A stretch of 62,967 nucleotides of DNA, filler included, from Collodictyon triciliatum (Eukaryota): assembly GCA_043381765.1 (NCBI GenBank). It is 7 parts of 7 records of this genome, joined end to end, with 100 filler letters (N's around TTAATTAATTAA, not from the genome) between each part and the next. Parts side by side here need not be neighbours in the genome. Positions count along the whole stretch, not along the records: positions 10,106 to 23,794 come from JBHJMP010002829.1; positions 23,895 to 33,896 come from JBHJMP010002830.1; positions 33,997 to 43,990 come from JBHJMP010002831.1; 4 more parts are not named here. One strand, written 5' to 3'. The stretch's first letter is position 1, and each line of letters begins with the position of its first letter. Below the pieces are notes generated by a model that was not told where the DNA came from, ran no database searches, and was given only the letters and a program-made list of their open reading frames with translations. The position numbers and the translations under genes are program-made. This document shows, piece by piece, positions 6,463 through 60,756 of this stretch.

Positions 6463-6529
<67 letters not shown>

Positions 6530-10005: not shown

Positions 10006-10105
10006 NNNNNNNNNNNNNNNNNNNNNNNNNNNNNNNNNNNNNNNNNNNNTTAATTAATTAANNNNNNNNNNNNNNNNNNNNNNNNNNNNNNNNNNNNNNN
10101 NNNNN
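10006..10105. other. Artificial contig linker
   Basis: N44-TTAATTAATTAA-N44 with stops in all six frames; identical at six places in the window. Confidence 0.97.
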
Positions 10106-13310: not shown

Positions 13311-16300
13311 GTTATAAACTCAGCTTTTTATTATGAATTGAAAATGAAATTCGATAGCTGTGGTTAAAAAAATAATTACACATTAGAGGCTTCTGGGCAA
13401 AAGTTTACAAATTTATCAGATGGGTCTTATTTTGGGGATGTCGCTCTTATTTTTGAAGAGCCTCGTATGGCATCCGCCAAAGCAATTTCATACTGTGAAT
13501 TACTGATATTTCGTAAGGTAGGAGCCAAATTTTAGTTTATATAGTTTGATCATTCGATGTTTATCAAAACTATCGGTATGTACGCATACTCACTTCATAT
13601 ATGTCATTAATTTCCCTCCATTATCATCAAATTTGATATAGTCTGATCTTCAAATGTTGTGTGAATTTTATCCGCTTCTATCCGAGAGACTTCAAGAACT
13701 TATCAATCTTAAGATTAAAGACAAAGAAAGGTGAGAATTATTCATGGACAAATGGGGTATGGTAGAAATAAATTGTGGTAGATACGCAACCTCTCAATAG
13801 TTTAGAATAAAATTGTGAGATATATTCACTAATTGTATATTAACACCATACAGCGTTGATAGGGGCAGGAATCCAAGTATAACAGAAAGTGTGACCATGA
13901 GCAAAACATCTTGTAACAAAAGTTATTTGAATAGCCATCGATCTATGAGGCATGCTGCAATGCCATTGGCATCAATGATGCTGAATCGAAATATATCTAG
14001 GATGATATCTAGAGATACAAGGTTTTCTTCTTTATAAACAGAAAAGTCACATCGTTCTTATTCGATATTATAATATATATATCATTCCTTATATCCAATT
14101 ATTCTCTTTATTTAAAAAAGGTCAACCTTAGTGGAGTCTAGGGTCTTGGCAAAAAGTGCATCAAGAGTACAGAACTCGTTATCAATTTTATACAATTCAT
14201 ATTTTGATAATAATTATTATTACTATTATTATTATTCCTTTGCTCGATTCAAATTCAAAATTTAACATATGATATACTTTGATCATTTGCGCAGATTATG
14301 TCAGATGAAGTTGGCTCTATTTATTTCAAAGATGCAACACGTGTTGTAGAATCTAGTGATTCTAGTGAGGACGATTCAACCCCTCATAAACGCGGACAAT
14401 CTGGTGATAAGGTTTGTTGTGGTTTTTTTTATTTTCATGTTGTTTTCAGGTGTCTTTTTCAGTTTTNNNNNNNNNNNNNNNNNNNNNNNNNNNNNNNNNN
14501 NNNNNNNNNNNNNNNNNNNNNNNNNNNNNNNNNNNNNNNNNNNNNNNNNNNNNNNNNNNNNNNNNNNNNNNNNNNNNNNNNNNNNNNNNNNNNNNNNNNN
14601 NNNNNNNNNNNNNNNNNNNNNNNNNNNNNNNNNNNNNNNNCATACATACATACATACATACATACATACATACATACATACATACATACAGGAAATCGAA
14701 CTATCGGCGTTCCAACGTAGGCAATCACAACCTACCACCAATATTCGGAAAACAGCCCCCGTTCATCACCAAAGTGCCTTTGTTCGCACTGGCTCAATTA
14801 CTCCATTAACACGCCCAGCTGCAGTCACGCACGAAAACGCCTCTGCAGAGAATTCTGGGCAAACAGTACAGAATAGAAAAAGTCTGATGGTTTCACAGAG
14901 ATCTTGTACTGCACAGAAATCACGACTACTTACCCCAGAACCATGGGTTTCAAATGAGGTATTCTAAATGCCATGTGCGTCAATAGTTTAATTTTTAACA
15001 AACCTCCTGAAAATATTTTTTTCCCCCTTAAATTCAAATTAATTATTGGTAAATGTGTATACATCAACAATAGGTGACCGTTCGAGATGAAAAGCTGAAT
15101 ATCGATACGACCGAATTGGAGCCAAATATTGTACCGAAATTCGAAAAAAATAAAAGCACTTCAAGCAAACCCACCCAAGAGGGTCTGTTGAGTATATCGA
15201 AAAGCTTGATATCAGTCAGGAAAATGGAAAGCGAGTCCTATTGTAAGCTCTTTCTTCATATATAATAAGATCTTCGATTACCGTTTTAAATCAATTTATT
15301 ATTCGTAACGTATCGAATATTTTGTAATGTTCACAATTTGGTGGGAAAAAATCAGTTTCTATTGGCCCGCATACCTCAAATGGATTTGAAGAGCAGCGAC
15401 AAGCCGTATTGGTTGATCAGCAAAGTTTATCGAACATCCGCACACCCGACCGACTCATGACACCTGGAATTGTAAAGAGTTCTTCGTATGCTCAGGAATA
15501 CATGGAACACCCGTCAGATCTGACCAACGATAACACACATCAAAAAAATGTCAATGAATCGGCGACTTCAGACACCTTCATATCGAGCGGACAAGTTTCT
15601 TTGTCTGACTCTGTGACGATTCGAGAAATGGCAGATGAGATACGAAATGAAAAGCAAAGAACATCGTTGCTTATGAAGGTTTGCAAACACTTTATGAAAA
15701 AAATATTATGGTAATTCATTTATCTTTTTTTCCAAAAAAAAAATCATTTATCAAAAAATTTAAACCAGTAACCCTTTCCAAACGAATAGGTGTCTCGGAA
15801 TGAAATCGATTTCGTAAGTCGGTGGGAGGATACAATAGAAGAATCGACGCCAGAACCCATCTTTTTGGATTCCCTCATCGGCGATGTTGTAAGGAATGAA
15901 GAGACAATAGAATCGAGCGGCTTCAGAAAAGACAGTGTTGAGTTTTATCATAGTTTGCCGGCTACTTCCTCAGTAGAGTATGGTCATAATTTGGCCATCA
16001 ATGTGTACTCACTGCTAGCACATTCCTCGATTGCGACTGATGAAATTATGGTTTCGTCCGTATTGAATGACATCTACAACCACAATAGTATCTGGCAAGA
16101 TTTTGATGAAGGCAGCAGTGGAGAGGATACGCTTGATGATAACATCGATTCAACAATTGATTGTACTACCGCAAGAAACCGTGATGGCCGTCCAATAGCG
16201 TTTCAGTTTTCGATTGGAGATGACCCCGATTCACCCAAGGATGTAGAAGAATTCGGGAATGAAGATGGAGAGGGACTGATGCACTTTGTCGTTCATGAAG

Positions 16301-17299: not shown

Positions 17300-20200
17300 A
17301 TGAATCCCAAGCGAAGCTCGCGGCCCTTCTTCCATGATACTGACCTCAAATATCTTGAGCTGGGTAGAAATCCTCTTGTATACAATCCTTTGGTACGTGC
17401 TCTTTTTATTTATTTCTGTTGCCTTTCTTTTATCTTTGTTTTTTTGTATTATCATTATTTATTTATTTATTTTTACTCAAACACACTTATTTTTAAAGCA
17501 TAGTTTCTTTTTATCTTTCATCCAATCATATCTTACCATAGAACTAGATCTTGGTTTTTGCTGTGTAGTCCCTCCTTCTGCATTAAAACTTACGCCAACT
17601 TATTTATTAGCGCTATATTATATTGAAAATATTCATTTTCTATGTGATAGGTTGATACTTGGGCGAGTTATGACGAAGTGCATAGGCACGTGATATTTTA
17701 TGATAACAGTCAAGTATCGTGGCTTTCCTTTACATCTCCCAGAGTTCGTTCAAAAGCAATTACGTATGGCCCAATCATATCTACAATACATATATATAAA
17801 TAGAAGCATGAATGTGTAAGCAATACATCAAAAATTACCATGTGAATATGAATGACAATATGCGCATGATTATTTTTTAGTATCAATCACAAAGGACCTG
17901 TTCATTCCATAAAACTTTCGGTGGATGGCTCATTCCTCTGTTATCAAGTTTCTGAGACGGAGATTGTATGTCGATTCTGGATTGCATTTAGGAATTCTTG
18001 TGGTAAAGGTTGCTAAGAGTATGATTTTAGGGATTTCACGGACTAGCAAGGCCTGTAGAGTTTCGTTACAAATGTCACAAAATTGAAAGCGGGAATAGAA
18101 TATTGTCTACTATTTGGACGCACGTCGGAGAGTTGTTCCTTGTCACTAAATTCGGTTTAGAGCTGCTTAAGGTCATCATAATTAAATGTATTGATTCGTG
18201 TAGATACGACTTACAAATCACTCGAGTGACTGGATAAGTGCATGAAATATTAACATTGATAATAATTATATAAAATGTGCCAAATATCACAGATATCATC
18301 TTCCAAATCCGCTGCCAAACTCATCAGAACATTTTCTGTCGATGTATCTTGGTTTATCTATTCTGTAAGATATACATTTATTTTCATTATTTAATTAACT
18401 AAAAAAATCATCTTTTTATCAAAAAAAAATCATCATAATTGGATGAATAATTCCTGATATGTATTTTTATAGCATGAAAATAGATTATTGGTGATTGGGA
18501 CTTCTCCTTCGGGAAAGTATGTACAATTGGAACGTATCATATTATATTTTAATTTTCTTCGTTCATTTCAATAGTTAAATTGACATATCTCTTAGATGAA
18601 AATAATCAAATTCTATATTCATAGCCTGTTGGTTCCGTATCACTTCCCTCCTGGCTCCGTAATCAAATTACCGAAATTTTCCCTCACTGTCGAATCAGGC
18701 TCATACGTACAATCAAATGAAGTTTACCTATCTCAGATGTATGTAGAGTAATATTCATTTGTATGGAGGAAAATATTTTTATGATTGCATTTGCCACAAA
18801 AAAATAAAAAAACTGTCTGCAGATATGGTATACTGTACTGTATTCATATAGACCCTGAAAGGAGAAAAGTTACACTTTATCAAGTATGGAATATGTCATC
18901 GAAACTTGCATATACACATGGATTATAGTCCTTATATGACGTTTCTTCATGATGCTATACATTCGATAAATGCTCTAAACTCGAATTCCACCTCATCATA
19001 GCTTGGAAGAGAAGAAGTGAAAACAAGGCGCATATTCGATCTTCCTGTCGGCCAAGATTTCTCGATCAGTGTTATCGATAATGTACTGGTTGTTCATTCC
19101 ATAGACTCAAAGGCAAGTATTCGCATACAATCAATATCTATTATTTGAATGTATGCCAATCACTTTAAGCTCTGTAAATACAATGATTGAATATATAAAT
19201 GACATAGGTTTCCATGCTCTTTGATTTGAAAAGTCTTCCGGATGTAAGCTAAAATGATTTGATATACATGCACTTTGCAAATGAATGTTCATATATTGTG
19301 TCGCTTTATTGATATGGTTCTTCACAACCATACTATAAAATTATGAAAACCCGGTCCATATATTCTCAATTTATTGCTTAGGTTCCTATTTCACTTCCTT
19401 CGGTGATTGTTCACCAATCGAATGACCGAACAAGGCGCTCTACAATAACAACCCCTTCAATTTCTGGCTATTCAGACCGAAGTCAAATAGTTGATATCGG
19501 CAATACCTTGCGAAGTACTGAAGTTTTGGCAACCATATCGTCATCCATGATAGATGACTCTTTAACACAGACATCACGGCATCAGCCTGAAATGTGTACG
19601 TAAAATACATTACACGTGAAGTGGGCGTATCAAATTGTAACCCATATTGCATTTGTTTGTTTATTTGTTTATTTGTTTATTTGTTTATTTGTTTATTTGT
19701 TTATTTGTTTGCTTGCTTCTTTGTTTCTTTGTTTCTTTGTTTCTTTGTTTGTTTACTTGTTTACTTGTTTATTTACTTGTTTATTTACTTGTTTATTTAC
19801 TTGTTTATTTACTTGTTTATTTACTTGTTTATTTACTTGTTTCTTGTTTGTTTGTTTTGTATATAGTAATTTTTCCTTTATTCGATTCAATAGTTTCATA
19901 AGAAAAACTATTATCTTCATATTTCTGATTCAGAATCATCTATATCTTTAGATATAGGAAACGGCTTCTTCTTTCAACCAAATATTTTATTTGATCCTGT
20001 TCAGGTTTTCTATTTATATTTATATCTATATCTTCATTTAGCTACATGATTTATGATAACCCCCCCCCCCCCCCCCCCTTCTTTTTTTTTTTTTTTTTTT
20101 TNNNNNNNNNNNNNNNNNNNNNNNNNNNNNNNNNNNNNNNNNNNNNNNNNNNNNNNNNNNNNNNNNNNNNNNNNNNNNNNNNNNNNNNNNNNNNNNNNNN

Positions 20201-20421
20201 NNNNNNNNNNNNNNNNNNNNNNNNNNNNNNNNNNNNNNNNNNNNNNNNNNNNNNNNNNNNNNNNNNNNNNNNNNNNNNNNNNNNNNNNNNNNNNNNNNNN
20301 NNNNNNNNNNNNNNNNNNNNNNNNNNNNNNNNNNNNNNNNNNNNNNNNNNNNNNNNNNNNNNNNNTATTTTTTTATTTTTTTTTTTTTTTTTTTTATTTT
20401 TTTTATTTTTTTTATTCCCCC

Positions 20422-20460
<39 letters not shown>

Positions 20461-22983
20461 ATATAACTGGGGCTGCGGTTCTAAACAAATCATACTTTCT
20501 ATTCTATCTAATGATTCGGATACAGGGTATGATATTTGATATACGTATCAATTTGGGTGAAGTTTCAAAAGACCTATCTGACAAAACAAGAATGATACAT
20601 TTCTTGCTAAGGAGACACAACGGGAAGCAATATGCACTGGAGGTTAGAAAGAAAGCCAAATATGTTGTCATTATTTCCCTTTATTCGATTCAAAGTAGCC
20701 AAATATGTTTTCATAATCCTTCTTATTCTTATCTATTACCACGCATTTGTTTCAGCTCCTTCGAACTTCCATCGAACGTGCTCATCCATTAGCTGATATC
20801 TCACATGTCTTTGAGAGTCTTAACAAGATTTACAAATCTGTTCTTGAGGAAAGGTTTGAAACCCTCATCTGTATTACATCAAAATAGAACCAACGTTACT
20901 TTTTCGTGTATGTTCTATTTTCACTAACAAGGCTCGGTCTAGCACTTATGTAATCACCTAAACTCTTTTATTTATATTATATAGAATAAGAGAGATGACA
21001 TTCCGTCAATCGAGACAAGCTCTCCCAGTCCCTGAGCGGTATTTCACGCTCTACCATAATTCATTAAGATATTTAGCATGTATTCTACATAGGCATATTA
21101 ATTAAGTTTCATGTACTCATCTTTTTGGGGGAAACAATAGTCCATCAACAGTCTTATTGACCGAAGAGCTTCTTCAAAATGAAGGTTCCCCTTTCTCTGT
21201 GTATTTCTTTATTATTTGATGTTAGAAAGATATTTCACTATTAAACCTCGTTCCAATTCAACGCATTCACTTGATATTTCTCTCAACTCAGAACCAGCTG
21301 AATTAAACTCTCCCACACTCGAAGAGTAAGATATTTATATAAAGTACGATACAAAACTTCTAAAATTATAGTAATGATGATAATAATGATAATAGTCCTC
21401 GGGGTGATGCATCATCGAACTTAAAGGTATTTCCAATCAAAAGTGCCAGTTCGTTCGAAATCCTTTCGTATCAGAAAAACAATCATGTAAATAATAATCC
21501 CAGATCTGTTTTGCTAGGGGTCTCGACATGACAATTACTTGGACGGAATCATCGTTATTAATCAGGACGATATATATAAAAGTGTCTTAAAGCCTCTAAT
21601 CGGAGCACCTGTAAGTTATTGAGGCATAACCATCGTGCATATCTTGCACGCTTATAGTCACTGTCGTTGATATGGTATTATTTGTTTTTCGGTTGGTTTT
21701 TCTTTTTCTCTATGTTTTTGTTTTTGTTTTTGTTTTTGTTTTTGTTTTTGTTTTTGTTTTTGTTTTTCCCCCTTTATTCGGTTTCAAGTATCACTATCGC
21801 TAATAGTATTCGGGACATATTTGTTGTGGGCGAAATACTTGTGTTTAGGGAATCGAATTCCGTTATTTTTTATCCGTTTGTATGGAGTATGTCCGAAGCC
21901 TGTCCATCAACCGCCTGAAAGTACATCACCATATATATCACTTTGTCGTCGACCTTCTCGTTAAGAACAAGGCTTTCTACCAGCTCCACCAAGTAAGAAC
22001 ATCCCCACTCGAGCGTTTACTTTATCATACTTGCCCTAAAAATTGTTCAAATCAGTTATTTGGCGGGCTCTAGTGGATTTCTTTTGACAAAAATTATTCT
22101 CATGCGCTCTTGTAGTTCCTGCAGTATCACATAATTTCAGACTCGTTGTCTGTGGCATGTCAGCTCCTTTCTATTGAAAATGAATACAAACCAGCCTATC
22201 AGGTATTAGCATTCTCTGGGAATGCGCTTTTTTACTTCTTTTTTCTCTTTCTTTTCTTTTTCTTTTTCTTTTTTCTTTTCTTTTTTCTTTTCTTTTTTCT
22301 TTTCTTTTTTCTTTTCTTTTTTCTTTTCTTTTTTTCTTTTCTTTTTTCTTTTCTTTTTTCTTTTCTTTTTTCTTTTCTTTTTCTTTTCTTTTTTCATTCG
22401 ATTGCTGACCATATAATTCAATCTATTCATGAAAAAGTTGATTTTTTTTCTCATCATATTCTAAAGCTTGCATTAGACATGTTTAAAAGATTGGGTGTGA
22501 ACGACACGATAGTGGAGGCTTTGTTATCAAGAAAACAGGTGAACTTTGAATCGAATAAAGGAAGAAAAAAAAATCAAGAAAACAGGTGCGCTCGTCAAAA
22601 GAAGAAAAAAAGACTCCTGTATGCCACACCCAATCATGTTTGTAAAGTATCAAACTCTCGTGCCCTCATATGGACCATTGCAGGTTGTGCCCGCACTGCG
22701 GTTCGTCCGGAGTGAAAAGGTGAAAACAATGCTGCCGAGACGTTTTTTGGAGGTGGCCCACTCTCTCGATGACCAATCACTGTACTTCATCACATACAAG
22801 GTTCGTCGCTCTCTCTGCCGCGCCGTTGTTTCGGCCTATTCCCCATATGCTGACGGTCTTTTCCTCTCTTTGCAGTGGCTGGAGCGCAGGAACGAAGCAA
22901 CGCGAGGCACAAAGCAGTTTGCACCAGAGGATGGATGCGATGAGTATATCTCTATCTACCGAGAAATGTTTGGCAGAGAATAG
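17300..22983 (+). CDS. RMC1: Regulator of MON1-CCZ1 complex (RMC1/C18orf8, Mic1 domain)
   Basis: N-terminus YLELGRNPLVY..., KGPVHSIKLS, VIKLPKF, FSISVIDNVLVVH; C-terminal Mic1 motif MEYVRSL...FYQLHQ|FLQYHIISDSLSVACQLLSIENEYKPAYQ|LALDMFKRLG..IVEALLSRKQ|VVPALRF; more than 20 short introns. Confidence 0.9.
19652..19860. repeat. Compound (TTTG/TTTA/CTTG) microsatellite in an RMC1 intron
   Basis: Directly visible. Confidence 0.9.
20654..20709 (-). mobile_element. Ultra-short insertion (30 nt) with 13-bp TSD, same family
   Basis: On the + strand: AGCCAAATATGTT [gtcattatttccctttattcgattcaaagt] AGCCAAATATGTT; the insert reverse-complements to actttgaatcgaataaagggaaataatgac. Confidence 0.8.
21658..21805 (-). 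mobile_element. Older copy of the short insertion, tail expanded into (TTTTTG)n
   Basis: Core cctttattcggtttcaagt at about 21771-21789, flanked by TCACTGTCGTTGATA and TCACTATCGCTAATA (3 transitions apart). Confidence 0.55.
22526..22588 (+). mobile_element. Ultra-short insertion (31 nt) with 16-bp target-site duplication
   Basis: ATCAAGAAAACAGGTG [aactttgaatcgaataaaggaagaaaaaaaa] ATCAAGAAAACAGGTG. Confidence 0.8.
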
Positions 22984-23351
22984 ACCGCTCTTTTATCCAC
23001 CCCTCGATAACATTGTTTGCTGGCATAGCTTATTCCTATTTCTCTTTCCGTCTTATGCATTTCGGACATTATTTTTCACGGCCCTTTTTTATATAAAATA
23101 AAATGAAAAGATTCAAGACATAGTGCGTAACTGTTTCATAGATGCTTTTGTTTGTTATATATAGCGTGTTTGTTTTGTTTTGTTTTGTTTTGTTTTGTTT
23201 TGTTTTGTTTTGTTTTGTTTTGTTTTGTTTTGTTTTGTTTTGTTTTGTTTTGTTTTTATCTTTTTGTAAAGAGAGTACCGCGTTTCATCGGGTGGCTGTT
23301 GCAATGCTCTGCTTTGCTTTACAGTTTACTCCTCTCATATTTTGTGTTTTC

Positions 23352-23403
23352 TGATTATTATTTTTCCTTTTTCCTTTATTCGATTCTAAGTGATTGTTAT
23401 TTT
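23352..23403 (-). mobile_element. Ultra-short insertion with 13-bp TSD (1 mismatch), same family
   Basis: On the + strand: TGATTATTATTTT [tcctttttcctttattcgattctaag] TGATTGTTATTTT. Confidence 0.7.
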
Positions 23404-23794
23404 CTCTTTTGGTTTGATACAAATACCTTGTAGAATGGAAAGAGAATTAATATATATAAATCAAATTAGCCCTCATTTTACCACGAAATGCTCGGATGGC
23501 AAGCACCACCGATAGAAACACAGACATTCCTGGGAGGGTCGATTCGCGCAAACCCATCATAGTACGTGGAACATGTTCAACGAATTAGCATATACACTGC
23601 ATTTTCAATTTAGTGATTTTATTTCTGTAGTATTATTCTTATTTTTTTTAAAAAAAAAAATAATAATAATAATTCGATATCAACTCTTTTCCGCCTGAAT
23701 ACCCAAGTCAAAAATCAGGAGCGCGTTTTGGTGGCCCTTCTCCACAAACCAACGACCCAAGCGAGGCTCTTGTGAAACCGCAACAACGAGCATC

Positions 23795-23894
23795 NNNNNN
23801 NNNNNNNNNNNNNNNNNNNNNNNNNNNNNNNNNNNNNNTTAATTAATTAANNNNNNNNNNNNNNNNNNNNNNNNNNNNNNNNNNNNNNNNNNNN
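23795..23894. other. Artificial contig linker
   Basis: Same 100-nt N/TTAATTAATTAA/N spacer. Confidence 0.97.
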
Positions 23895-24004
23895 ATACAA
23901 AAATAGATACAAAAATAGATACAAAAATAGATACAAAAATAGATACAAAAATAGATACAAAAATAGATACAAAAATAGATACAAAAATAGATACAAAAAA
24001 ATAC

Positions 24005-25258
24005 CTGAGTTGTTAAAAAACGACAATAAATCCACAGGGATGAGAGAGCCATAGCGACCTGTTGAAATAGTGCATGTTGAGGTAGAGCGAATAAAAAATA
24101 ACAGGATAAATCAGCAAGTTTAATTTATACTGTAATTTGTACACAAGTCTCGTCATTATTAAGATAAATACTCAAAAATGATGCCGGATCAGAGTCGAGC
24201 AAGCTGGTTAATTCTTGTTGTAAAACAGGTTCGCCTTTCACAACTGCAAGTACGCTCTGAATAAGTGGCACCTTCTCGGCCATTTCAAGACCTCCACCTA
24301 GCGTCCCGCTCTCCAGCAGCTACATCAAGCGTTGAGGAAAATTGATCATTAAAAAGCAAGAAAAAAGGCAATAANNNNNNNNNNNNNNNNNNNNNNNNNN
24401 NNNNNNNNAAAAAAAGACAATAAAAAAAAGACAATAAAAAAAAGACAATAAAAAAAGACAATAAAAAAAAGACAATAAAAAAGACGGCGAAAACACAAAT
24501 CGACACAGGAAACAAAAGCCCACCCCACGATTTGGATCCTCAACCATCTCGACCGTCTCCGACCAGAGCGTCTGTCCACACCGGGCGCAAAAGTCCTCCG
24601 CAGACGCATCTCGCCCACCAAACTCACGCGTCCTGAACGGAAGACTCCTCAGCCGCTCCACCAGACTCGTCCGCGCACAAACCTCCTCCTGCGCCTCAGC
24701 CCGACGTCTGCGCAGCGCACTCAAAAGGCCAGACGCGTGGCGCACTCTGCGGAAGTAGACCGGCCGGTCTGCCGCCGCCAAAGTCGCATCTCCATTATTT
24801 CCCGAGTCGGAATACGCGAGATGTTGATGATTATCACCATCATCATCAATATCAATGTCGTCATCGTTATCATTATCATCGTCATTGCCGCTTGGACTTC
24901 CACCCATATCCCACGATGTCCTTCTGCGCAGAATGTCGAGTTCATGTTGGCGCGTGTCTTTTGCTTGCCCACCGGCCTTTGCCAAGCTTTGCTTCACGTC
25001 TTTTTCTCGGCGCAAAACAACCGGGGCGCGGCTGGGCGCGGCGCGTCGGGCTTCGTCGGGGATTTCTGTCTTCTGTGCGGCGAGAGGCGGGCGAATGGGC
25101 TGCCCAGTCGACTGCGAGCGATTCCCACTGCTTTTGTGAGGCTCGTTCGGAATCGAACTGCGGCTTGTTTGCGAAGGCCTTGACTCTGGCGTGGACGCAC
25201 GCGAATGGGCAGGCTTCTTTGCAGGCTGCGGCGCTTTGGACGGGCTTGGGCGGGACAT
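24005..25258 (-). CDS. Hypothetical protein with Pro/Ser/Arg-rich N-terminus; 3'-truncated at contig end
   Basis: GC-rich ORF from ATG 25258, spliced in frame to exons reading LLESGTLGGGLEMAEKVPLIQ...CVQIT and VAMALSSLWIYCRFLTTQ. No family recognised. Confidence 0.6.
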
Positions 25259-25727
25259 GCTTGCGTCTCGTTTGGTGTTCGGGCCGGTGGCGGAAGTTTG
25301 CTACGGGGTTGCGGGCGTGTCCAGTTGGCTGTGCACTCCCTGCTGTTCTTTTCCTTTGTGACTCTTTCTGTTTCTCTCTGTTTCTCGGTGTTTCTCTGTC
25401 GGAGAGTTTGGTTTGGCGGCCGAGTGACTTGTTTGTTTCCGTGAGTGTTGTATTGTGTTGTAAAGCATTCCGTTGCAAAAAAAATATATAAAAAAAAAGT
25501 CCCACACAAATTGTAGTGTTGATACCATAAATGATATGATAGCGCGGTATTTTTTGTTTTTGTTTTTTTCTGTGGCTCGTCAAAAGAATGCGGATGTAGA
25601 TGTAAGCGAGTGTGTGTGACAGCTGTCTTGCCTCAAGAAGCAAAAAGAAAGAAAAAAAAAAAAGAAGATAATAATGTGTCCGTGAGATTTTTATTTGGAC
25701 ATTGACGGGTTTTGGTGAAGAATATCG

Positions 25728-27560
25728 TCATGCTTTGGGCCAGTTTTCTGTATTCTTCCAAAAAGGAGAGGTAAAAAGGTTCAGCATTGTGAACGAGATC
25801 AGAACGGTTTGGAGAATCAGGAATGGCTTCATATTATACTTCCATGACTTTACAAGAGGTATTTCAAGGCCATACATGTAATTTTCGATGGTGATGGATA
25901 TGAGTTGAGCTATGAGCTCGATAGATAATTGTATTACTATACTGAATAGCATGTGCTCAATGCTGCTAATCACCTCAAAAGTAAAATAGTCCTTGACTGG
26001 CCGGCAAATAAATAGAATCAAGGGTATGAGAATGGCTATCTGCAACTCTGAGGCATATGTGTAGTATGAACGATTGGACCGATAGGCCATGATGTAGTCG
26101 GCGATGCCATCAACATGATTGAATCCGCGAGTAAGTGCCATGAGACTTGGCAAGCCTGCTACATCGCGAGAGAAGTGGAGCTCGAACAGACGATTTGCAT
26201 CCTTGGACTTTGGGTTAGCTTTTTCACGACGTTCTCCGGATTCAACGATGTTATCGAGAGGTTGTACCCTTCTGTCCGATAAATCACAAGCCGCAGCATG
26301 CTTTTTGGCGTATTGAATCATTCTCATGATACAAATGGCCCTCAGTACAAATGTAGCTCGAAAGAAAATCTCTGATACCCCAGAGGCCAGTGCCATCAAC
26401 AAGGTTTCATTCAAGTTGGGCGAGTCGGTGATCATCAAACGTAGCACAGCTAGTCCGATAAAGTTGTAGACATTCCCAAATATTATGCGATACTTCAAAT
26501 GTTCTTTGGACTTGTAAATCAACTGGTTATTCTGGTATGTATCTGTGATATTGAACACAAACGGGAGGATTGCCACTCGTCCGATGATACGAATCATAAA
26601 CCCGGACCTCATAAAGTATGGAATCAGAAGAAATACAGAAGTGTTGTACACAATGCCATATGCAATAAAGCCTTTGAACAAGGCCATGGGAGTACCATCA
26701 GAGGATAAAACATCATACCGATGGGCCTTTTCATTTGGTTGGGGTTTCATATTTGGATTGCAGTAATTCTTCACATGTCTGAAGATCAATACACAATGGA
26801 GCAAAAAGCAAACGTAATAAATTATGGAGAGATATCGCAGTTGAAATATTTGCCTCAGGGAATATAAAGCTATGTGGAAGAACGACATTGGTAGCGTCAA
26901 TCTGAATACAAGGGGATACACTCTCTCCTTCCCAAAAACATGCAACGCGACTGCAGTTATACCAAAATACATGGCAAAATTAAACAACGTGTATGCGGAC
27001 AAGAAATGTATCAGCAGATTTGTATGGGTTCTGTGCATATACCACAACGGGGAGAATATTGCCACTGTGATTGAAATCGGGATGAGACCAAGAATAACCG
27101 AGTGATAAAACATCCAGACGAGGATATTGAAGGCATATTTAAGTGACTTCCAAAAGTTGCGCTGATGCCCTGGTTGGATAAAAGTCTGCTCTCTTTTCAA
27201 AGCTCTTTCCAGTGGCGGCGGCTTCTGTGTCGAGGAATTTACTTTGTTGCTAATACATGACTTTGGTTCTTCCACATGAGCCACCTCCGATAATACATAA
27301 AGCGGATCACTTTCTATATCCAGCCCTCTTTCTTTACTTTTGCCTTCATCTGGTAGCCCAAATGATATGCCACTCTTTCCATCACCTTTATTACACACTT
27401 GGGATATGTCGATAGTCTCCATGGGTATATTTTCTGCGATCTCTATGTCCTTCCTTCCCTCATCCTTGGCGTAGGTTCTTCTGTCCTTCGGTGGGTGGGC
27501 TCCCTCGCGGACGGGTTTGGCTGGGAGGAAGTGAGTCTCGATCGATAGCTCAAAGTCCAT
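25728..27560 (-). CDS. Intronless multi-pass membrane protein of unknown function (about 610 aa)
   Basis: Uninterrupted ORF with a hydrophilic N-terminus and about 10 hydrophobic segments; likely start MDFELS at 27560; similar to 42712-43962. Confidence 0.8.
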   Translation of the reverse strand: MDFELSIETHFLPAKPVREGAHPPKDRRTYAKDEGRKDIEIAENIPMETIDISQVCNKGDGKSGISFGLPDEGKSKERGLDIESDPLYVLSEVAHVEEPKSCISNKVNSSTQKPPPLERALKREQTFIQPGHQRNFWKSLKYAFNILVWMFYHSVILGLIPISITVAIFSPLWYMHRTHTNLLIHFLSAYTLFNFAMYFGITAVALHVFGKERVYPLVFRLTLPMSFFHIALYSLRQIFQLRYLSIIYYVCFLLHCVLIFRHVKNYCNPNMKPQPNEKAHRYDVLSSDGTPMALFKGFIAYGIVYNTSVFLLIPYFMRSGFMIRIIGRVAILPFVFNITDTYQNNQLIYKSKEHLKYRIIFGNVYNFIGLAVLRLMITDSPNLNETLLMALASGVSEIFFRATFVLRAICIMRMIQYAKKHAAACDLSDRRVQPLDNIVESGERREKANPKSKDANRLFELHFSRDVAGLPSLMALTRGFNHVDGIADYIMAYRSNRSYYTYASELQIAILIPLILFICRPVKDYFTFEVISSIEHMLFSIVIQLSIELIAQLISITIENYMYGLEIPLVKSWKYNMKPFLILQTVLISFTMLNLFTSPFWKNTENWPKA

Positions 27561-28340
27561 TGTCCCTATTCTGTTTCGACAATTCCTACCGCAGAGAAGA
27601 TTTCCTGAGTCTCTGTTGAAACTAAGAGTCAAATATTCAAAAATAATCATTGAGGGGCACTATGATCGAGAGTGGGATGTTTCTGGTGTCAGCTGCCGAT
27701 CGTAGAAAAAGGTTTTTTTTTTTTGGCTTCTTTTTTCTCTTCTGACATCCTTTTGGGATTTGCTTTTTTTTTCTTTTTTTAGTTGTTTCAAAATTGATGA
27801 AGATGGCACACACAAGCTAAGAGACGAAAGGACATGCAAAGTTGGGAGCTGCACCGACAAAGCTCATGTGCGTGTTGGGTACACAAATGAGAGTTTGCGA
27901 CTTCCACTGTGAGTGAACATGTTGCCTTCGCCGCCACACTCGTTTTTTCAATCCTGCCGGTACAATATTTTCTGTTTTACCGATGCAGTTTTCTTCTGTT
28001 TGCTTACTTCTGCGGATAGAATAAAGGAGGATTTTCTACAAAAGGATAAATCTTGATTCACACCGCATATGTCTTAATATGGTATCAGTACTCATTTTCT
28101 GGCCATCACGCATCAATCAGCAATCTCGACCGCGCGATTCCAGCTTGGCGCACCCGATCAGCAAAAGCCTTGCAGCCTCCACACACAGTTTTTTTCTAGC
28201 TAAACCTAACAAGATACGCACTCACCGTCTCTCTTTTTTTTTTCTTTCCTCCAAACGCTATGTCCCAATCCAAAGACACGTATACCTTCTGTGTTGCCTG
28301 TTCTTACAAAACCCTTTCGACAAATCCGAAGCGAGCCAGA

Positions 28341-28767
28341 ATGTCTGATCAGAAAGCAGCGAAACCTTCCAACCCGGCTCCCCATCCGGCTTTGATCAGC
28401 TCGTCCACAACCACACAAGTCAAGGCGATCACCAGCCAGCGAAAGATGTTTCTGTTTCTTTTCGTCTTGTCCTCCATGTTTGCAGGCGCCGCCTCGACGC
28501 AACTCGCATACAATCTGAGCAAGGTTTGTAGTCCGGTTCATGTAGCTGAACGCTCTGCACTCTTTTGTTTTGTTTTCACTTTTCACTTCTTTTTTTTTTT
28601 TTCCCTTTGATTGCTCGACATATGAGAAATGCTACTTCCGATTGAGTTCCATGCAAGGCAGTTCTCCAGCCAAAGAAGCAAGCCTTCCTTGTATCTCATT
28701 TTCTTCCTCCTTTCTTTCTTTTGTCGGCCTCGAAACTCTGGGCGCACAGAAAGGACAGACCGAGTGA
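28341..28767 (+). CDS. Putative small single-pass membrane protein (about 77 aa, 3 exons)
   Basis: MSDQKAAK...RKMFLFLFVLSSMFAGAASTQLAYNLSK|AVLQPKKQAFL|KGQTE* can be assembled with GT-AG sites; the downstream exons are uncertain. Confidence 0.35.
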
Positions 28768-29483
28768 GACTCCACGCCTGCTGCAACGTGTCTTCGAAGC
28801 CATACCATAAACATGAATATACGCCCGCCGGAAAAAAATTCTGCTTTCAGCAACAAATCTCAACATTTATCAGGCGACACAACATGTCAATCTTATTTGG
28901 CTGCCAGTTTAGCAGAGAAATATTTTAATTTCCAGATTAGAAGTCTCTGTGTTTTTTGAATCTGAATCTGTTTCGAAAACACACCAAAGCAGCCGCATCA
29001 ACACAAACCCAACGCGATTGCACTCTCGCAAGCCGGCCGATTGGTCGGTCAGATCGCCAGGCTTTTTCAGCCACTGGAAGTTGGAAGCGAAGGATCTCAC
29101 AGTTTTTCTTTCTCTCTCTGCTTCTACCTCTTCCATTTCACTCGTTTGTTGGATGTTATTTCCTTTTTATTTTTTATTTTTTTATTTATCAATCTAATGC
29201 TTGGCTGGCACGTGATTCAAACACTTGACTCACCTTTTTGCAAAGAGTACACCCTTTTATTCTCTTTCTTCCCACTTCTTCTCTGAAATGCTTCATCTTC
29301 CTCCATAAACAAGCAAAAAAAAAAAAAAAAAAGTTGTAGCCACCTTAATCATTCACCGTTTAGCCATTCAAGGGCCTCGCCGGTCCGAATATCAATACGG
29401 CTTTCTTTTATCCTTTCTCTTTCAATAATAATGTTTATGTTGCAGAGGAACAGTTTAGTCTTCAACGGGAACAATAGATAAAG

Positions 29484-32400
29484 ATGATGAAAAGGCCCAC
29501 TGCAACTCCGGCCACTGCGGCAAAGACAACAGCGAAACCGACCGTAACAACTTCAGCGGAGACGAAAGCCGCCCAATCAACAGGAACAGCCTCAAACCCG
29601 ACATCCAAGCCAAGCCGCCCTTCGTCAATAACCTCTTCGACATCTGCAGCATCAGTATGTTACTATCGATAACATATTAAATGTGTTCAATGTGTTCAAT
29701 GTTTTCAATGTTTTCAATGTTTTCAATGTTTTCAATGTCCTCTGAGCCCACCCACTCCAATCCACTCAGACCTCGAAAGCTGCCGGGGTTCAGCCAAGAG
29801 TTGTCACCCGTACAAACACCGTCACACAAAAAACTGCAAACACAACGAGCGCCGATGAACCGAAACCCACATCAAGAATCCCCCGTGCATCTAATGCAAT
29901 GTCAGCACCCAACACAGGACCAACAACAACATCATCATCATCATCAACAACAGCATCAGCATCAACGAAAACAACTACCGCGCCTGTGAAGCCCATTCTT
30001 TCGGCCCGTCCTGCGCAAAGGACAAACCCACATTCAACAGCCACCGCATCAGCCCGCCCTTCGCCTCCGCCCTCGCAGATCCCAAAGCCGCCCAGCACAA
30101 GACTCGCAGCCGCTGCACAGGGCTCACAGACATCCACAAATCATCCGCCTGTCTCGAAGGCAGCCTCGGCATCTGCAACTGCCACGTCGCGAACCACCCC
30201 GCGTCAATCACCTACGGCCGCTTCACAACCTCTTTCCGAACGAAAAACATCGATCGGCCTGCGAACATCCTCTCGCGAATCAAACACACATACCACTGCA
30301 AATCCCAATGCAAATCCGGCCGCGTTCAACCAAAACCATCCAATGAGTCCGCACAGCTTAAAGCTGAGCAGCTTCAAGAACGAAGGTTCAAAGGACTCGC
30401 TGACGAAGCCGAGTGCTCGTGCACCAGTGCCGCCTGGAAGCTTGAGTAAGCAGAATTCTGGCTCTTTGAGCAATCGCGATTCTTACAAAGAGAGCACACA
30501 GCGAGTACAAAGAAGCCCAGCGCAGACGCAAAGTCCATCAACAGGAAAAATGAACCGTAAGTTGAAAGACATGACCTTTTTATTCACCATTTTTTTCTTA
30601 TTGAAAAAAATTAGAATATTACACCACTGCTGCAGTGTATCATAACATATTCGTGTAGATGCACTTGATTTCCACAAACTAAGGCCCTTCTTTCTTTTAA
30701 ATTTTTGCAAAATTAACAACATCGTTGTTCTTGTACATATCTATCGAATCCTGATTTTCTTTCTTTCCTCTTGAATAGCACAATTAAAAGTCGTCATCCC
30801 GGCCAACGTGGATGAATACGATGAAAACTTACCGGACATCACAAACACCGCTCGGAGCACGACAAATGGAGTTGAAGATGACATCGAGGCAACCAGAAAC
30901 GATGAGTCCTTAGCTTCTCCGACTCAATACTTTTCGAGAAGGCCTGAAGAGGAGTCTGTTGCGGAAGAAATACAGGAAGAACGAAGCACAAATCTGTTTG
31001 CAATCGACAGTCCAGCAAAGGAGGTCATCGACGAAGAGATCGGATTCACCGGAGCTACACGACCCGAGTCAGCCAATGCCAAAGCACAAAGGTCATCGGG
31101 CCAACTTCGCCAGTCCACAGAAACACATCGACGAGTTCAGGCTGCACAAGAGAAGCTCGTTCAGGCTGAAATAGCGGCAATATCACAGGCCATGGCGCAG
31201 GAGAATGCAAGAGTGGTAGAATACAAACACCGCCCATCCAGCGGCCGTCTCTCTGCAACAGAGCATGACAAACAAGCGGCTATGGCACAACAGCCCGGGA
31301 CGGAATTCTCATTTGCATCGCCGAGCACAGAGAAACATTCCAGACAGAGACGCTCAGCGGACGGCGCCCATGAATCCATCAGTGACCATGGGCACAAAAA
31401 CGAGCGCACAACCCTGCATGAGCCAAAGCACGAATCCGAGTCTGTGTTTGTATTCACGCCGCAGAAATCTCGCTCCTCGCATCCACGGTCTCTTCACCAA
31501 TCTACAGACTTACAGACCGCTTCAAGCCAGCACCCGGTGGCCGACGACACATTCGACGACCGCGACTTTGTTCAGCGCTCAAACGCGTCAAATGTACATG
31601 CACAAAGTGGCCGAGGAACGCGCGGCGCCTCGTATGACTCGTTTCAGGGCTCGACTGCCGGGTCTGTTTTGAAATCGATTGCGTCAGGTCGTCGCAAGGA
31701 GGACGCAGACTTTGTTCGGGCGTCGTTGGCATCGATGCGCCAGTCAGTCAAGAGTGCAGACTCCAATCTCGAAGCGCGCGCTTTCTACGACACGGAACAC
31801 ATGATTGCTCCACAGGGTGATGAAACATACGCCGAGCACCACGACCAAAGCGTGGCCCATGATGCGGGCTATAATGATGCTCACACAGCACCGAATCCTG
31901 ATGATGACCTTGAAATCAAAGACGAGACAGATGCTCGGATTGCAGCACAAGAAGGATTGGGTGGTGGCTTGCAGAGCGAATCGGCGTCTCGCAAGCTGGT
32001 TGTCAGAGGCGAGTCGAAAGAGATTCTCGCTTCGGTGGATGATTTGCAGGCTGCTCTGGGAGCAACTTCGCTTTTGCATGGTGGTGATGAGGATGATGAT
32101 GATGGTGGCGATGGTTTTGTCGAGGACTCTCAGAATGTCCCAGACTACGCCCACCAGCCGCAAGCACATGACGGAGAATATGACGATGAGTATAATATCA
32201 ATGACCAGAATGATGGAGACGGGGATACGGACGGGGATTATCCGCTGGAACAAGATCGCCATGAGGATGAGTATCACGAGGAACAGGAAGAACCTTGTGT
32301 TGATGAGAACGGAGGAGGCATTGGGGACGATGAAAATACTGAACAGGAGGAGGTCTTTGCGGAGCATTACGACGAGGACTACGACCCGCAGAATGACGAC

Positions 32401-32508
32401 GGGCAAGGAATGTACGACCCTGAAGAAGAGGATGGCGGGGAAGGTGAATACCCGCCGGGTGATGAAGCTGAAAATGCAAATGCGTTTGCGGACGAGGAGA
32501 GCTACTAG
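29484..32508 (+). CDS. Large intrinsically disordered protein (Ser/Thr/Pro/Ala-rich basic N-half, Asp/Glu-rich C-end), 3 exons
   Basis: Exons at about 29484-29654, 29770-30556 and 30779-32508 join in frame at GT-AG sites; the terminal ORF is 566 aa. Confidence 0.75.
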
Positions 32509-33896
32509 TCACAAAGAGAAACGAGTTTTCTTTGCTTTTTTTTTTTCCCCACCACCATTTTCCGGACTCATATTCTCCTTCACATACCCTGTCACTCTTT
32601 GGTTTCTCCTTTTTTTTTTCTTCTCATCGTTGCTTGGGTGGTGCTTACTGGATGTAATGTTTTTTTTTTTTTTTTTAATAAGAGAGAAAAACCAAACAGG
32701 AAGGAAATACAATCGCATTGCACTGCTCTGTTTCAGTCCTCCCCTTTTTTTTTTTATTTTATTACATCCAGTTTTTTTCTCTTTTTCTCTTTTTCAAAAT
32801 TAAAATTCTGTTCAGGTTGACGTGGTCCGACCCGATTGTGCAGTTTTGTTTTATTCAACAGAACCATACCTTTTTAATTAAAAAAACAACTATTCATTTA
32901 TTAGAAGAAAAGAAAAGAGAATCTTGCTTGCTGAATCCACTGTGCGCCTTTTATTCCATAATCCTCGAGTGACATTCACGAGTACCTCCTCTAATGAAAA
33001 TCCATGTATTCTAGAAAACTTTTTTTTTTTTTTACTTGCGTGCATACATGTACATAAATACGCACACAAACATTCCCCACAAACACACGTGCATCCGGTT
33101 CACAATCCGTCGCGGAGATTAGCCAGGAGCGAAGAGTGGATTGTGCGGTATAAGTGCAGAAGGGTGTTTGCGGAGTGTGTGCATTTGATTTCTATGCTTT
33201 GCAAGGCCATTCGGCCGGGTTGGGCAGTGTTTTCTTCGACGGCAGAGTCTGCGACTCGTGTGAGCACCAGTGTCTCGCTTGCCTGCAGGTCGATTGCGCA
33301 GATATCTGCAGATACCGAACGCCCGCACATTCATCAACAAACCGTGATTAGATTCGAGTTAGATAAAATCACACGATTAAATAAATACCCATACACGCAC
33401 AAAAAGGAGAAATAGGAAAAGGAAAAGGAAAAGGAAAAGGACAAGGAAAATAGTGTAATTCGACTGGCGTGATGGTTAAATCAGATCGAGTGTGCAGCGA
33501 TTGGGTTGAATCGTAGTTTGAAAGGAGAGCAGGTGGGTGAAGGGATTTTGATATGCATTCGTGAATAAGTGAGTGAGCGTTTGATACAATAGTAACATCA
33601 AATGACACCTTCGATGGGGATGACCTTGTTCACGCTTTGCATGTGTTTCTTGGTGGTGACAACAGACCTGTGTGTTTTGTGGGTGGCAGCGTCAGTCGTG
33701 TGGGATTGAATAAAATGATTTTTCGAATGGAAATGCTAATTGTTAAAACAAAGAAACAAAGAAAAAAGAAAGATGAAAAAAGAAAGATGAAAAAAGAAAG
33801 ATGAAAAAAGAAAGATGAAAAAAGAAAGATGAAAAAAGAAAGATGAAAAAAGAAAGATGAAAAAAGAAAGATGAAAAAAGAAAGATGAAAAAAGAA

Positions 33897-33996
33897 NNNN
33901 NNNNNNNNNNNNNNNNNNNNNNNNNNNNNNNNNNNNNNNNTTAATTAATTAANNNNNNNNNNNNNNNNNNNNNNNNNNNNNNNNNNNNNNNNNNNN
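33897..33996. other. Artificial contig linker
   Basis: Same 100-nt spacer. Confidence 0.97.
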
Positions 33997-34090
<94 letters not shown>

Positions 34091-34257
34091 TAATAATAAT
34101 AATCATAATCGTCTCAGTAAAGTACATTGTACACACAGGAAAATAGCTTCATATATATTTTATGTATGAATCTCCTTATAACTGCACTCACAGAATGTGT
34201 TTATTTTTTGACTTTTTTATTCCCACGTATACGCACCACTCACTCTTATTTGCATAG

Positions 34258-35197
34258 GGATGTACCAAGATCATCCCCAAGCAGCCATCTTGGTTCTCAA
34301 AAAGGTTTGTATTGTATAGATCATTTTCGTTTGTTTGGAGTTCATTTCTATTACAGCTACAGTAGAAGCTATCTAAGTCTATGTAAAAGCTTTCTAGGAC
34401 ACATAAATATTTAGCTTTTGCTCTCTGAAACAAAATTAAACGGGGATATATCACATGAAAATTGGAAGCAAATAAGAAACTATTTATCTATTAAATGAAA
34501 TATTGTCTTCTCCACTTAAAAAAAAAGAGCCAACTATTTTGTTCATATATTAATTTACGTGATAGGATACCAAGAAATCTCTGCTAATCCGCCAGAAAAT
34601 CAACAGACATCGCAGTCACCAATTTTTAAGCATTCTGTAAAACCAGCCGCGGGCTCACATATATCTCCTCTCAGAAGACGTGTTTTAGTCACAGCACTGT
34701 CTCCCCAAGAGCCAAATCAGCCTGTCAAACACGGGTTCTTTCTTTCATTTCTACATTTTTACATTATTTTATTTGGCTTGCGTTATTCTTCCTGGCTCCC
34801 AAATTATTGATTGAAGTGGTAAATTACTAAAAAGTAATAAAGGATGAAAGTAAGAATCGAATAACGCTGATGCGGAGTTCACCTCTGTTTTGTATTTGTA
34901 CAACAATCGTTGAAGTACTTACAGATTGTAAAATCCAATTAGACATGATTCACCTACTTGGTCTCCCAGTGGGCAGGAGCAAACTTTTTATTCACCTCAT
35001 CTGCAAATGCAGCGACAACAACAATTTTCGAGTTCACCCAATTCGCAAATATATAGAGTCTCAGAGAAGATAATTTATCTTACAAATATGTCCTTATCTG
35101 AGATTCCCGACCAGGTTTATTATCCTTAAAGCTTTTTCTCTCACTAGTTTATCATAATTACAAATGATTCAAGATAAGTTTATTATTATTAGCATTG

Positions 35198-35296
<99 letters not shown>

Positions 35297-36940
35297 GCAT
35301 TTAGAGATTCCCATTTAGAGGCAATTTTTCAGTTCCTTATGAAGCATATTGTTTTTTTTTTTTAACATTGCAGTCGATTAAAAATATTAGATTCTTCGGT
35401 TGCATAACTTGGAAGAAATAAGCCTCAAAGCAAACAACATAAGATCCCTCAATACTATAATCTCAACACTGACAAACTTAAAGTACTTGGATATGAGGTT
35501 TTTGATTTTAAATTAGAGTTGGTTCAGTTTGTATGTATACAGTATTGCATATTTATCCGTTAAACATCTAAGGCTATCATGGCTTTATTTATCCAATAAA
35601 AAAAATTAACGTATGCATAGCGAGAACAACATTTCGCAACTGGGAGAGGAAATTGGGTTGATGAAGTCACTCATCTCTGCGAATTTTTCTCGGAATGATA
35701 TCATACGAATTTCACCGGATATACCCGTCATGGATAAGCTCGGTGATTGATGTGTTGCATCTAGCATTCATTCAACATTTTCTCTTTGTCTTAAAAATTG
35801 TTAACTTTTTTAATTCGAGAGGGAATGCTAATGAGAGAATTTTGTTTCAATTTTCACCACATGTATATGTTTGAATCTTTCTGCCAAGTATTAAAAATCC
35901 GTACTAATTTTTAATATATATACTGAATTTACAAGAAATACTCATTCTGGATCACAATCAAATTATGGATATGAGCGGGCTGGCATCCGGCAAACTAAGA
36001 AAACTCAGAATACTAAATCTGCAAGAAAATTTTATTACTGAAGTAAGAGATTCGAAAAGTATGATTTTTTTTGAATTGTAAGGAATTTGTACTCGGCAAA
36101 ATCAAGCATTTTTCGCGCTCATTTTGCCATTTCCATCTCGTTTCTAAGATATAACAGACAGCTCTGAATCGAATAAAGGGGAAAAAAAAGAAGATATAAC
36201 AGACAGCTAATCACCCCATTATTCACACATGTTCGCTTTAGATTCCAAACTCAGTCTCAAAAATTACTCAGCTTCAAGTAAATATTCATTTAATGATATA
36301 TATTTTTTTATCTTCGAGTGCTGATTTGCCAATTTTGTTTTCCCGTAGGAGATGTACCTAAGCTCCAATCAAATATCTATTTTACCGGACGAGATCGGGG
36401 GGCTAGCTAATTTGATTGTGTTGGACATAAGCAAGAACCGTCTTACATGCCTCCCATTAAATATTGTAAAATTACAGGCTCTTGTTCGGGTATAACCTAG
36501 GGGATATTTATCTCAAATAGTTTATTAATGATCCTTTCTCCTAATTAGCTAATTCTTAAATAGAATTTTAGATCCATAGCACTACTTAATTTACAAATAA
36601 ACCCGAAATATTTAGTTGGACGCGGAAAATAACTTCATCTCTAACCTTCCTTTGGAGCTAGGGAAAATGCGAAGCTTATCTAAATTGAATATGAAAGTAG
36701 TCAATCATTTCGTTCTAGTCGTGTACTCCTTTTCCCTTGCCCCTGTTTTATCGAATGCATGTTTTCTGTGTATCATTCATTTTTTGGTAACTTTAATGAT
36801 TGCGCATCAATTTTTGTAGAATAATCCTTTAAGTATCGAAATTGCCGAGGCAGCCAAGCAAGGAACATTTTCACTCTTGCGGCTATTAAAAACGATGGGG
36901 GATGGTCACACTCAGTCCAGTGAATCGTAAAATAGATTAT

Positions 36941-43962: not shown

Positions 43963-43990
43963 AAAAAAAACTGTCCAGCATGTCGATGCA

Positions 43991-44090
43991 NNNNNNNNNN
44001 NNNNNNNNNNNNNNNNNNNNNNNNNNNNNNNNNNTTAATTAATTAANNNNNNNNNNNNNNNNNNNNNNNNNNNNNNNNNNNNNNNNNNNN
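43991..44090. other. Artificial contig linker
   Basis: Same 100-nt spacer. Confidence 0.97.
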
Positions 44091-54076: not shown

Positions 54077-54176
54077 NNNNNNNNNNNNNNNNNNNNNNNN
54101 NNNNNNNNNNNNNNNNNNNNTTAATTAATTAANNNNNNNNNNNNNNNNNNNNNNNNNNNNNNNNNNNNNNNNNNNN
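54077..54176. other. Artificial contig linker
   Basis: Same 100-nt spacer. Confidence 0.97.
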
Positions 54177-60656: not shown

Positions 60657-60756
60657 NNNNNNNNNNNNNNNNNNNNNNNNNNNNNNNNNNNNNNNNNNNN
60701 TTAATTAATTAANNNNNNNNNNNNNNNNNNNNNNNNNNNNNNNNNNNNNNNNNNNN
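60657..60756. other. Artificial contig linker
   Basis: Same 100-nt spacer. Confidence 0.97.

Follow-up and report, generated by a model that had tools for sequence, protein, structure and literature searches.

Very short insertions with a confined 5' end and flanking target-site duplications in a stretch of the Collodictyon triciliatum genome

Can inserts of 25 to 31 nucleotides (nt) be products of retroposition, and if so, what was copied? The question is raised by a 62,967-nt stretch of sequence from Collodictyon triciliatum (assembly GCA_043381765.1), referred to below as the window, in which the 14-mer GAATCGAATAAAGG recurs and several of its copies lie between direct repeats of flanking DNA. 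A first-pass annotation of the window had described a family of short, duplication-flanked inserts, and that observation is confirmed here. The inserts probably arose by target-primed reverse transcription (TPRT), carried out by an L1-like enzyme that uses poly(A), and the shared 20-mer would be the extreme 3' end of the element.

Copies of the unit and their flanking duplications

The exact 14-mer occurs five times, on both strands and at all five positions that had been reported for it, and none of 100 dinucleotide shuffles of the window gave a single occurrence. When the longer 18-mer CTTTGAATCGAATAAAGG was used with up to 3 mismatches, eight matches were obtained, compared to a shuffle mean of 0.14 and a shuffle maximum of 2, and these eight are taken as the credible members of the family (Table 1). 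Among the degenerate copies listed in the first-pass annotation, those at 8199, 14237, and 21771 were retained at this threshold, while the candidate at about 11183, with 3 mismatches in the 14-mer and 2 more in the 4 bases upstream, was rejected as a chance match. Two further sites with at most 2 mismatches in the 14-mer (28014 and 34854) have neither the upstream CTTT nor an A tail and were likewise attributed to chance. The earlier figure of about nine copies in 63 kb is therefore eight, and the high density claimed from it comes from one contig chain in which five of the eight copies lie within 3.5 kb of a single contig, inside and just after the gene for RMC1 (regulator of MON1-CCZ1). This is the most AT- and microsatellite-rich part of that contig. 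Taken together, the sites of the 20-mer are eight unrelated positions on at least three contigs. Alignment of the eight copies gave a shared unit that reads, on the element strand, (A)ACTTTGAATCGAATAAAGG followed by 0 to 3 further G and an A-rich stretch; five copies have identical cores.

Four of the copies are bounded on both sides, and here the insert measures 25 to 31 nt and consists of a few 5' bases, the core, and an A-rich tail of 6 to 11 nt. As had been noted, these four are bracketed by different direct repeats of 13 to 18 bp that start with A: the lengths are 16, 18, 18, and 13 bp, two of the duplications are perfect and two carry one mismatch, the four are mutually unrelated, and each begins with A on the element strand. 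The base preceding the duplication was T in three cases and G in one. In the three of four copies where T precedes the A-starting duplication, the bottom-strand position of the first nick is therefore placed at T|A. The insert starts AACTTT, ACTTT, CTTA, and CT ahead of GAATCG were found as described, and the A- or purine-rich 3' side said to follow each copy was seen in all eight credible members. Since five cores are identical and the duplications are near perfect, at least some of the insertions are recent.

Such flanking repeats are rare in the window at large. Only 3 of 3,000 random positions, chosen free of tandem repeats and N, reached a duplication score of 11, the cutoff being the weakest real score among the four bounded copies, versus four of the eight family members. 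Moreover, when the masked window was scanned blindly for direct repeats 21 to 259 nt apart, 24 events were returned, seven of them spaced by less than 100 nt, and three of those seven were family duplications; the fourth had been removed by the low-complexity filter of that scan.

All copies lie in non-coding DNA, those with a clear gene context being in introns or downstream of genes. The 5' duplication of the copy at 22548 (ATCAAGAAAACAGGTG) is made up of 13 nt from the end of an RMC1 exon and of GTG, the 3 nt that open the intron; the exon end, ...EALLSRKQ, aligns to ...EVLLSKHQ of PDB entry 9l0d_C, and coding resumes at 22684 with VVPALRFV. As these alignments and a reading of the sequence show, the copy entered 3 nt into an RMC1 intron of about 95 nt and duplicated the splice donor. 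Because an exon end and a splice donor are contained in the repeat, the repeat is copied target DNA and not a part of the element. RMC1 now carries the same splice donor twice, at a distance of 47 nt, and has an AATAAA 15 nt into the intron. The copy at 36166 lies between two open reading frames (ORFs) with leucine-rich repeat (LRR) matches (35908-36078 and 36349-36492), and the one at 20678 lies a few tens of bases upstream of ORF 20717-20884, in which a weak RMC1_C match begins near 20744. The copy at 23373 lies on the strand opposite to RMC1, about 390 nt beyond the stop codon of that gene (22981-22983); the one at 21771 is antisense in an RMC1 intron, upstream of exon ORF 21849-22070; and the one at 8199, on the plus strand, falls within the stretch occupied by a minus-strand LRR gene. 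Two copies are thus sense (22548 and 36166) and at least three antisense (19875, 20678, and 21771, all within RMC1). Of the ways that had been named in which the idea of a mobile family could fail, the main one, a fixed orientation relative to host transcripts, is removed by the mixed orientations found.

The remaining four copies (19875, 21771, 14237, and 8199) have 2 to 3 mismatches in the 18-mer and no duplication within 400 nt, and they are read as older insertions. In three of them a micro- or minisatellite starts exactly at the tail (19640-19865, 21720-21770, and 14200-14236), and these satellites look like repeats born from retroposon tails. At the copy at 19875, the tail side joins an A-rich mini- and microsatellite array of about 220 bp, which is composed of (AAACAAGTAAAT)n and its relatives.

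The confined 5' end and the origin of the inserts

The bounded copies start at positions -6, -5, -4 (or -5), and -2 relative to the core, and homology ends at -5 or -6 in the four copies that have no duplication. Upstream of about -6, no sequence is shared by any of the eight copies and the alignment consensus is lost; when the upstream flanks of 10 candidate copies were compared in pairs, 2 of 45 pairs reached the 5% level, which is the chance expectation. A ladder of longer 5' lengths, the pattern that would have made these inserts ordinary ends of long interspersed nuclear elements (LINEs), was absent from the window: none of the eight copies extends beyond the unit of about 20 nt, so the spread of 5' truncation points expected of LINE-type TPRT copies was not seen. 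The unit folds at only -0.3 kcal/mol (z = 0.4), and its best structure, a 5-bp stem, is no better than those of shuffled sequences; a hairpin acting as a reverse transcriptase (RT) stop or as a recognition element was rejected on this basis. Since the unit has no meaningful structure, any block to the enzyme would lie outside the copied part. The 5' limit may be due to a template that physically ends there or to an obstacle immediately upstream, for instance a folded structure or a bound protein. A true template end is weakly favored by the long, uniform duplications and the short tails of the youngest copies. According to a study of de novo human L1 insertions (PMC11702581), full-length insertions have duplications of consistent size, and truncated ones have a broader range of sizes together with microhomology. 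No extra G was present at any of the four bounded junctions, which counts against a capped RNA.

Variable duplications, a polar A-rich tail, a start with A after T, and independence of orientation are the hallmarks of L1-type TPRT, and the family carries this signature. From it we infer an RNA intermediate and an enzyme of that type. An endonuclease would nick the bottom strand at a T|A-type site, and the T-ended 3' OH would pair with the A-run of an RNA ending ...(A)ACTTTGAATCGAATAAAGG(G)n-A(n). Reverse transcription would then copy only about 20 nt, ending 5 to 6 nt upstream of GAATCG, and a second nick 13 to 18 bp away, followed by gap filling, would give rise to the flanking duplication. 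The likeliest template would be the very 3' end of the RNA of the retrotransposon itself, in which AATAAA would directly precede the A tail, and what limits the 5' end would be either a physical RNA end (that of a cleaved 3' fragment) or a fixed point at which the enzyme is blocked. An AATAAA just before the tail resembles the 3' ends of L1-type elements, and LINE enzymes copy their own RNAs by preference; for these two reasons the 20-mer is taken as the putative 3' end of a LINE. PMC11702581 gives TT/AAAA as the target preference of de novo human L1 insertions and duplications of a size similar to those found here. The TPRT interpretation offered in the first-pass annotation is thus supported in part: its structural argument (duplications, A tail, A-start, orientation, and confined 5' end) stands and fits no other explanation considered.

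Several observations weigh against this interpretation. No RT, endonuclease, or transposase domain was detected in the 201 window ORFs of at least 70 amino acids, and no longer copy was present in the window, whereas lengths vary among ordinarily truncated copies; a LINE is therefore connected with the family by analogy only. A BLAST search of the window against itself returned only this family and simple repeats, with no further dispersed repeat and hence no master copy. Neither a tRNA nor an Rfam family was found across the window, nor was a parent RNA gene for the 20-mer. As described above, nothing in the fold of the unit explains a stop. The tails measure 6 to 11 nt even where the duplications are perfect, and they end in bases other than A (G, GGA, or TA); short tails ending in this way are untypical of young L1 insertions. 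Moreover, the presence of five of the eight copies within 3.5 kb is not predicted by a genome-wide random process, and the evidence comes from eight copies in a single 63-kb contig chain.

Tentatively, each insert may be a complete copy of an A-tailed RNA of about 20 nt that exists as a physically discrete molecule. Such an RNA may be the 3' fragment of a retrotransposon transcript with a single cleavage site, produced either through slicing guided by a small RNA or through a self-cleaving ribozyme. If the RNA is discrete, this would be the smallest retroposon family described, and a TPRT enzyme would need little more than an A-run and a template of about 20 nt; if it derives from a cleaved transcript, each insert would be the fossil of a transposon RNA that had been cut and was still reverse transcribed.

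It is also conceivable, if somewhat doubtful, that the RNA had no connection with a transposon tail and was instead a discrete, oligoadenylated cellular RNA of about 20 nt, copied in full and mobilized in trans by a LINE; a processed RNA fragment and a leader-like small RNA are the candidates, and the inserts would in that case make up a genuine micro-retroposon family. The unit may resemble some short spliced-leader sequences (TTTGAAT...AATAAAG). The 5' ends, which fall within 5 nt of each other in the four bounded copies, and the stop in homology at -5 or -6 in the other four would suit such a source, and tails this short are closer to what an oligoadenylated RNA would leave than to the tail of an mRNA. 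The preference of L1-type enzymes for their own RNA speaks for a transposon template instead, and we know of no process that makes an abundant 20-nt A-tailed RNA. The long duplications of similar size (13 to 18 bp) are like those of full-length human L1 insertions as reported in PMC11702581. Against a cellular source are the lack of any Rfam or tRNA match in the window, of any copy followed by GT and a structured region, and of a cap-type extra G at the four junctions, as well as the absence of the motif from the literature searched.

A route that does not involve an RT ranks low. Filler DNA at the repair of staggered breaks, or the footprint or miniature form of a DNA transposon, would account for the 4-nt inverted ends CTTT...AAAG (the 5-bp stem), for an insert length close to that of repair fillers, and for the clustering of five copies in 3.5 kb. 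Cut-and-paste transposases generate duplications of one length, whereas those found here vary (13, 16, 18, and 18 bp), and repair fillers are copied from nearby DNA, whereas the same 20-mer is found at eight unrelated sites on at least three contigs, so that local flanks were not its source. The constant polarity, seen in an A-rich tail confined to one end and in the A that opens each duplication, also argues against this route, as does the absence of a transposase from the 201 ORFs mentioned above. Again, a miniature inverted-repeat transposable element would have a fixed duplication length, and the inverted match of 4 to 5 nt has negligible stability. We therefore consider the RT-independent route improbable. 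Ranked lowest and already disfavored is the reading of the motif as a conserved polyadenylation or splicing signal with incidental flanking repeats: the AATAAA within the unit, the T-rich tracts that antisense copies place before exons, and the non-coding location of every copy would fit it, but it is made very improbable by the abutting 13-to-18-bp flank duplications in four of eight copies compared to 3 of 3,000 controls, by the occurrence of both orientations relative to genes, and by the duplication that repeats an exon end and splice donor.

Comparison with known retroposons

Severely 5'-truncated L1 elements and other LINEs are the closest known systems to the family as interpreted here, in that they have variable duplications of about 7 to 20 bp, an A-rich tail, a T|A nick, and either orientation within introns. 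In human L1, moreover, AATAAA is close to the tail. Truncated LINEs form a continuum of lengths, whereas all eight family copies stop at one place about 20 nt from the tail, and a parent element was not seen in the window. A median length of 712 bp is given for de novo human L1 insertions in PMC11702581. Ends of RTE elements in Lepidoptera are described in PMC2887409 as truncated and associated with microsatellites. They are like the three family copies whose tails have turned into micro- or minisatellites, and they differ from the family in its 20-nt length and in its 13-to-18-bp duplications.

Short interspersed nuclear elements (SINEs) share with the family a short nonautonomous unit, an A tail, and target duplications, and are presumably LINE mobilized as well. 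Platy-1 (about 100 bp) is called the shortest primate SINE. In SINEs, an internal RNA polymerase III promoter is present and the head stems from a small RNA, whereas the family has no such head and a unit of about 20 nt. The SINE unit is generally about 70 to 700 bp in length, with a head from tRNA, 7SL RNA, or 5S RNA; the window contains no tRNA or Rfam match, and the inserts are 25 to 31 nt including the tail. U6/L1 chimeras and tailless retropseudogenes are LINE-made retrocopies of identifiable RNAs of at least 70 nt and have discrete 5' ends, fixed by where the small RNA itself ends; it is in the combination of discrete 5' ends and TPRT hallmarks that they are like the family. The family is thus distinguished from truncated LINE ends by its single end point at about 20 nt and from SINEs by a several-fold smaller size and by the lack of a head with a promoter.

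The motif strings were absent from the literature searched, and no comparable family was described in the passages of PMC2887409 and PMC11702581 consulted or in the titles and abstract openings returned for short retroposons, the shortest SINEs, spliced-leader retroposition, and abortive TPRT. In a collection of prokaryote genomes, the 18-mer gave 20 single matches, in contigs from bacteria, compared to about 17 expected by chance in 2 x 596 Gb, and none of the 20 was followed by a run of 6 or more A. Five metagenome-assembled genomes (MAGs) of Bacteroidota, including Crocinitomicaceae and a Lishizhenia MAG (matches L001, L006, L010, L011, and L019), have the 18-mer in one conserved context, ...GAAGGTTC.GTTGCAGG.AA.AA, the 18-mer, and T.GA.T.CC.GC.CC.GTTTC.TCAGG.AG. 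The shared context presumably marks a conserved gene that has nothing to do with the eukaryotic element.

Should the family prove real across the genome, retroposition machinery would fix inserts of 25 to 31 bp with a defined 5' end, well below the size range in which repeat finders and annotators search for mobile elements. Such inserts alter genes slightly: of those found here, one duplicated an exon end and splice donor, others brought AATAAA or T-rich tracts into short introns, and several seeded micro- or minisatellites. The fixed 5' end would provide a handle on a step that is poorly understood, what stops a LINE RT or makes it run off its template. Current models would be extended to an extreme and not overturned.

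Sequence setting and other features of the window

The window is AT-rich, with a GC content mostly of 0.27 to 0.46 per 2-kb window, and its introns are short and T-rich. Tandem Repeats Finder masked 6,189 of its 62,967 bases. It contains 1,053 N, including six 100-bp blocks of the form N44-TTAATTAATTAA-N44 with stops in all six frames; the remaining N runs fall inside simple repeats. The blocks are read as spacers between separate contigs of about 10 kb, and order or adjacency across a spacer is therefore not used as evidence. The recognizable genes are listed in Table 1.

Table 1. Positions of the family copies, host genes, and spacers along the window
Feature	Position	Strand	Details
Exact matches to GAATCGAATAAAGG	19875(-), 20678(-), 22548(+), 23373(-), 36166(+)	both	
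Matches to CTTTGAATCGAATAAAGG	8199(+), 14237(-), 19875(-), 20678(-), 21771(-), 22544(+), 23373(-), 36162(+)	both	at most 3 mismatches
Copy 22548, 5' duplication	22526..22541	+	ATCAAGAAAACAGGTG; 16 bp
Copy 22548, insert	22542..22572	+	31 nt: AACTTT + GAATCGAATAAAGG + AAGAAAAAAAA; sense, RMC1 intron
Copy 22548, 3' duplication	22573..22588	+	16/16 identical
Copy 36166, 5' duplication	36146..36163	+	AAGATATAACAGACAGCT; 18 bp
Copy 36166, insert	36164..36190	+	27 nt: CT + core + GGAAAAAAAAG; sense, LRR gene intron
Copy 36166, 3' duplication	36191..36208	+	18/18 identical
Copy 20678, 5' duplication	20697..20714	-	ATGAAAACATATTTGGCT (element strand)
Copy 20678, insert	20672..20696	-	25 nt: ACTTT + core + GAAATA; antisense, RMC1 intron
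Copy 20678, 3' duplication	20654..20671	-	17/18 identical (13 exact)
Copy 23373, 5' duplication	23391..23403	-	AAAATAACAATCA
Copy 23373, insert	23365..23390	-	26 nt: CTTA + core + AAAAAGGA
Copy 23373, 3' duplication	23352..23364	-	12/13 identical
Copy 19875	19866..19895	-	AACTATT + exact core + AAAAA; antisense within RMC1 span; no duplication
Copy 21771	21720..21790	-	ACTTG AAACCGAATAAAGG GGG, tail passing into (AAAAC)9; no duplication
Copy 14237	14200..14256	-	AATTT GAATCGAGCAAAGG, tail passing into (AAT)n-like run; no duplication
Copy 8199	8196..8232	+	AAGTTT GAATGGAATAAAGA, weakly A-rich downstream; no duplication
LRR gene	0.5-9 kb	-	domain search of ORFs
cNMP-binding domain gene	13.0-13.5 kb	+	
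RMC1 gene	at least 17870 to stop 22981-22983	+	PDB 9l0d_C alignments
LRR gene	35.4-36.5 kb	+	domain search of ORFs
Formin	55-57.4 kb		
ORF with EB1 motif			among the recognizable genes of the window
N44-TTAATTAATTAA-N44 blocks	10006-10105, 23795-23894, 33897-33996, 43991-44090, 54077-54176, 60657-60756		several spaced by about 10.1 kb

A k-mer scan for other short A-tailed inserts was swamped by microsatellites, and two sites from elsewhere in the window were left uncounted. At 6855-6942, the masked scan found a 17-bp direct repeat, ATGAATTACCAGTAAGC, around 54 nt that end in AATAAA and A14. This insert resembles the starts of introns in neighboring repeat units of the LRR gene on the minus strand, where it can be read as an intron, a 24-nt microexon, and a donor; given the likeness to intron starts, it may be a tandem duplication. 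The surrounding region, about 5600 to 8500, consists of diverged tandem units with a repeat spacing of about 120 to 260 bp and common words that include TCTGGAACGGTTCCTGT, which on the minus strand encodes a GTVPE-type part of an LRR, and it looks like an LRR gene made of repeated exon-intron units. The second site, 62308-62360, has a 14-bp repeat with 1 mismatch (CAAACAATATGAAC and CAAACAATAAGAAC) around 25 nt that have no A tail and no likeness to the family, and it may be due to chance.

Two long intronless ORFs, both on the minus strand and without a Pfam family, are present at 25731-27659 (643 amino acids) and 42712-43989 (425 amino acids). From the hydrophobic stretches in their translations, both look like multipass membrane proteins, and the likeness between them is marginal at most (E = 0.036). 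The ORF at 25731-27659 had no match in a large protein search and gave an Atlas score of 0.93 to unnamed "transmembrane protein" clusters from Chlorophyta, Oomycota, and Cnidaria.

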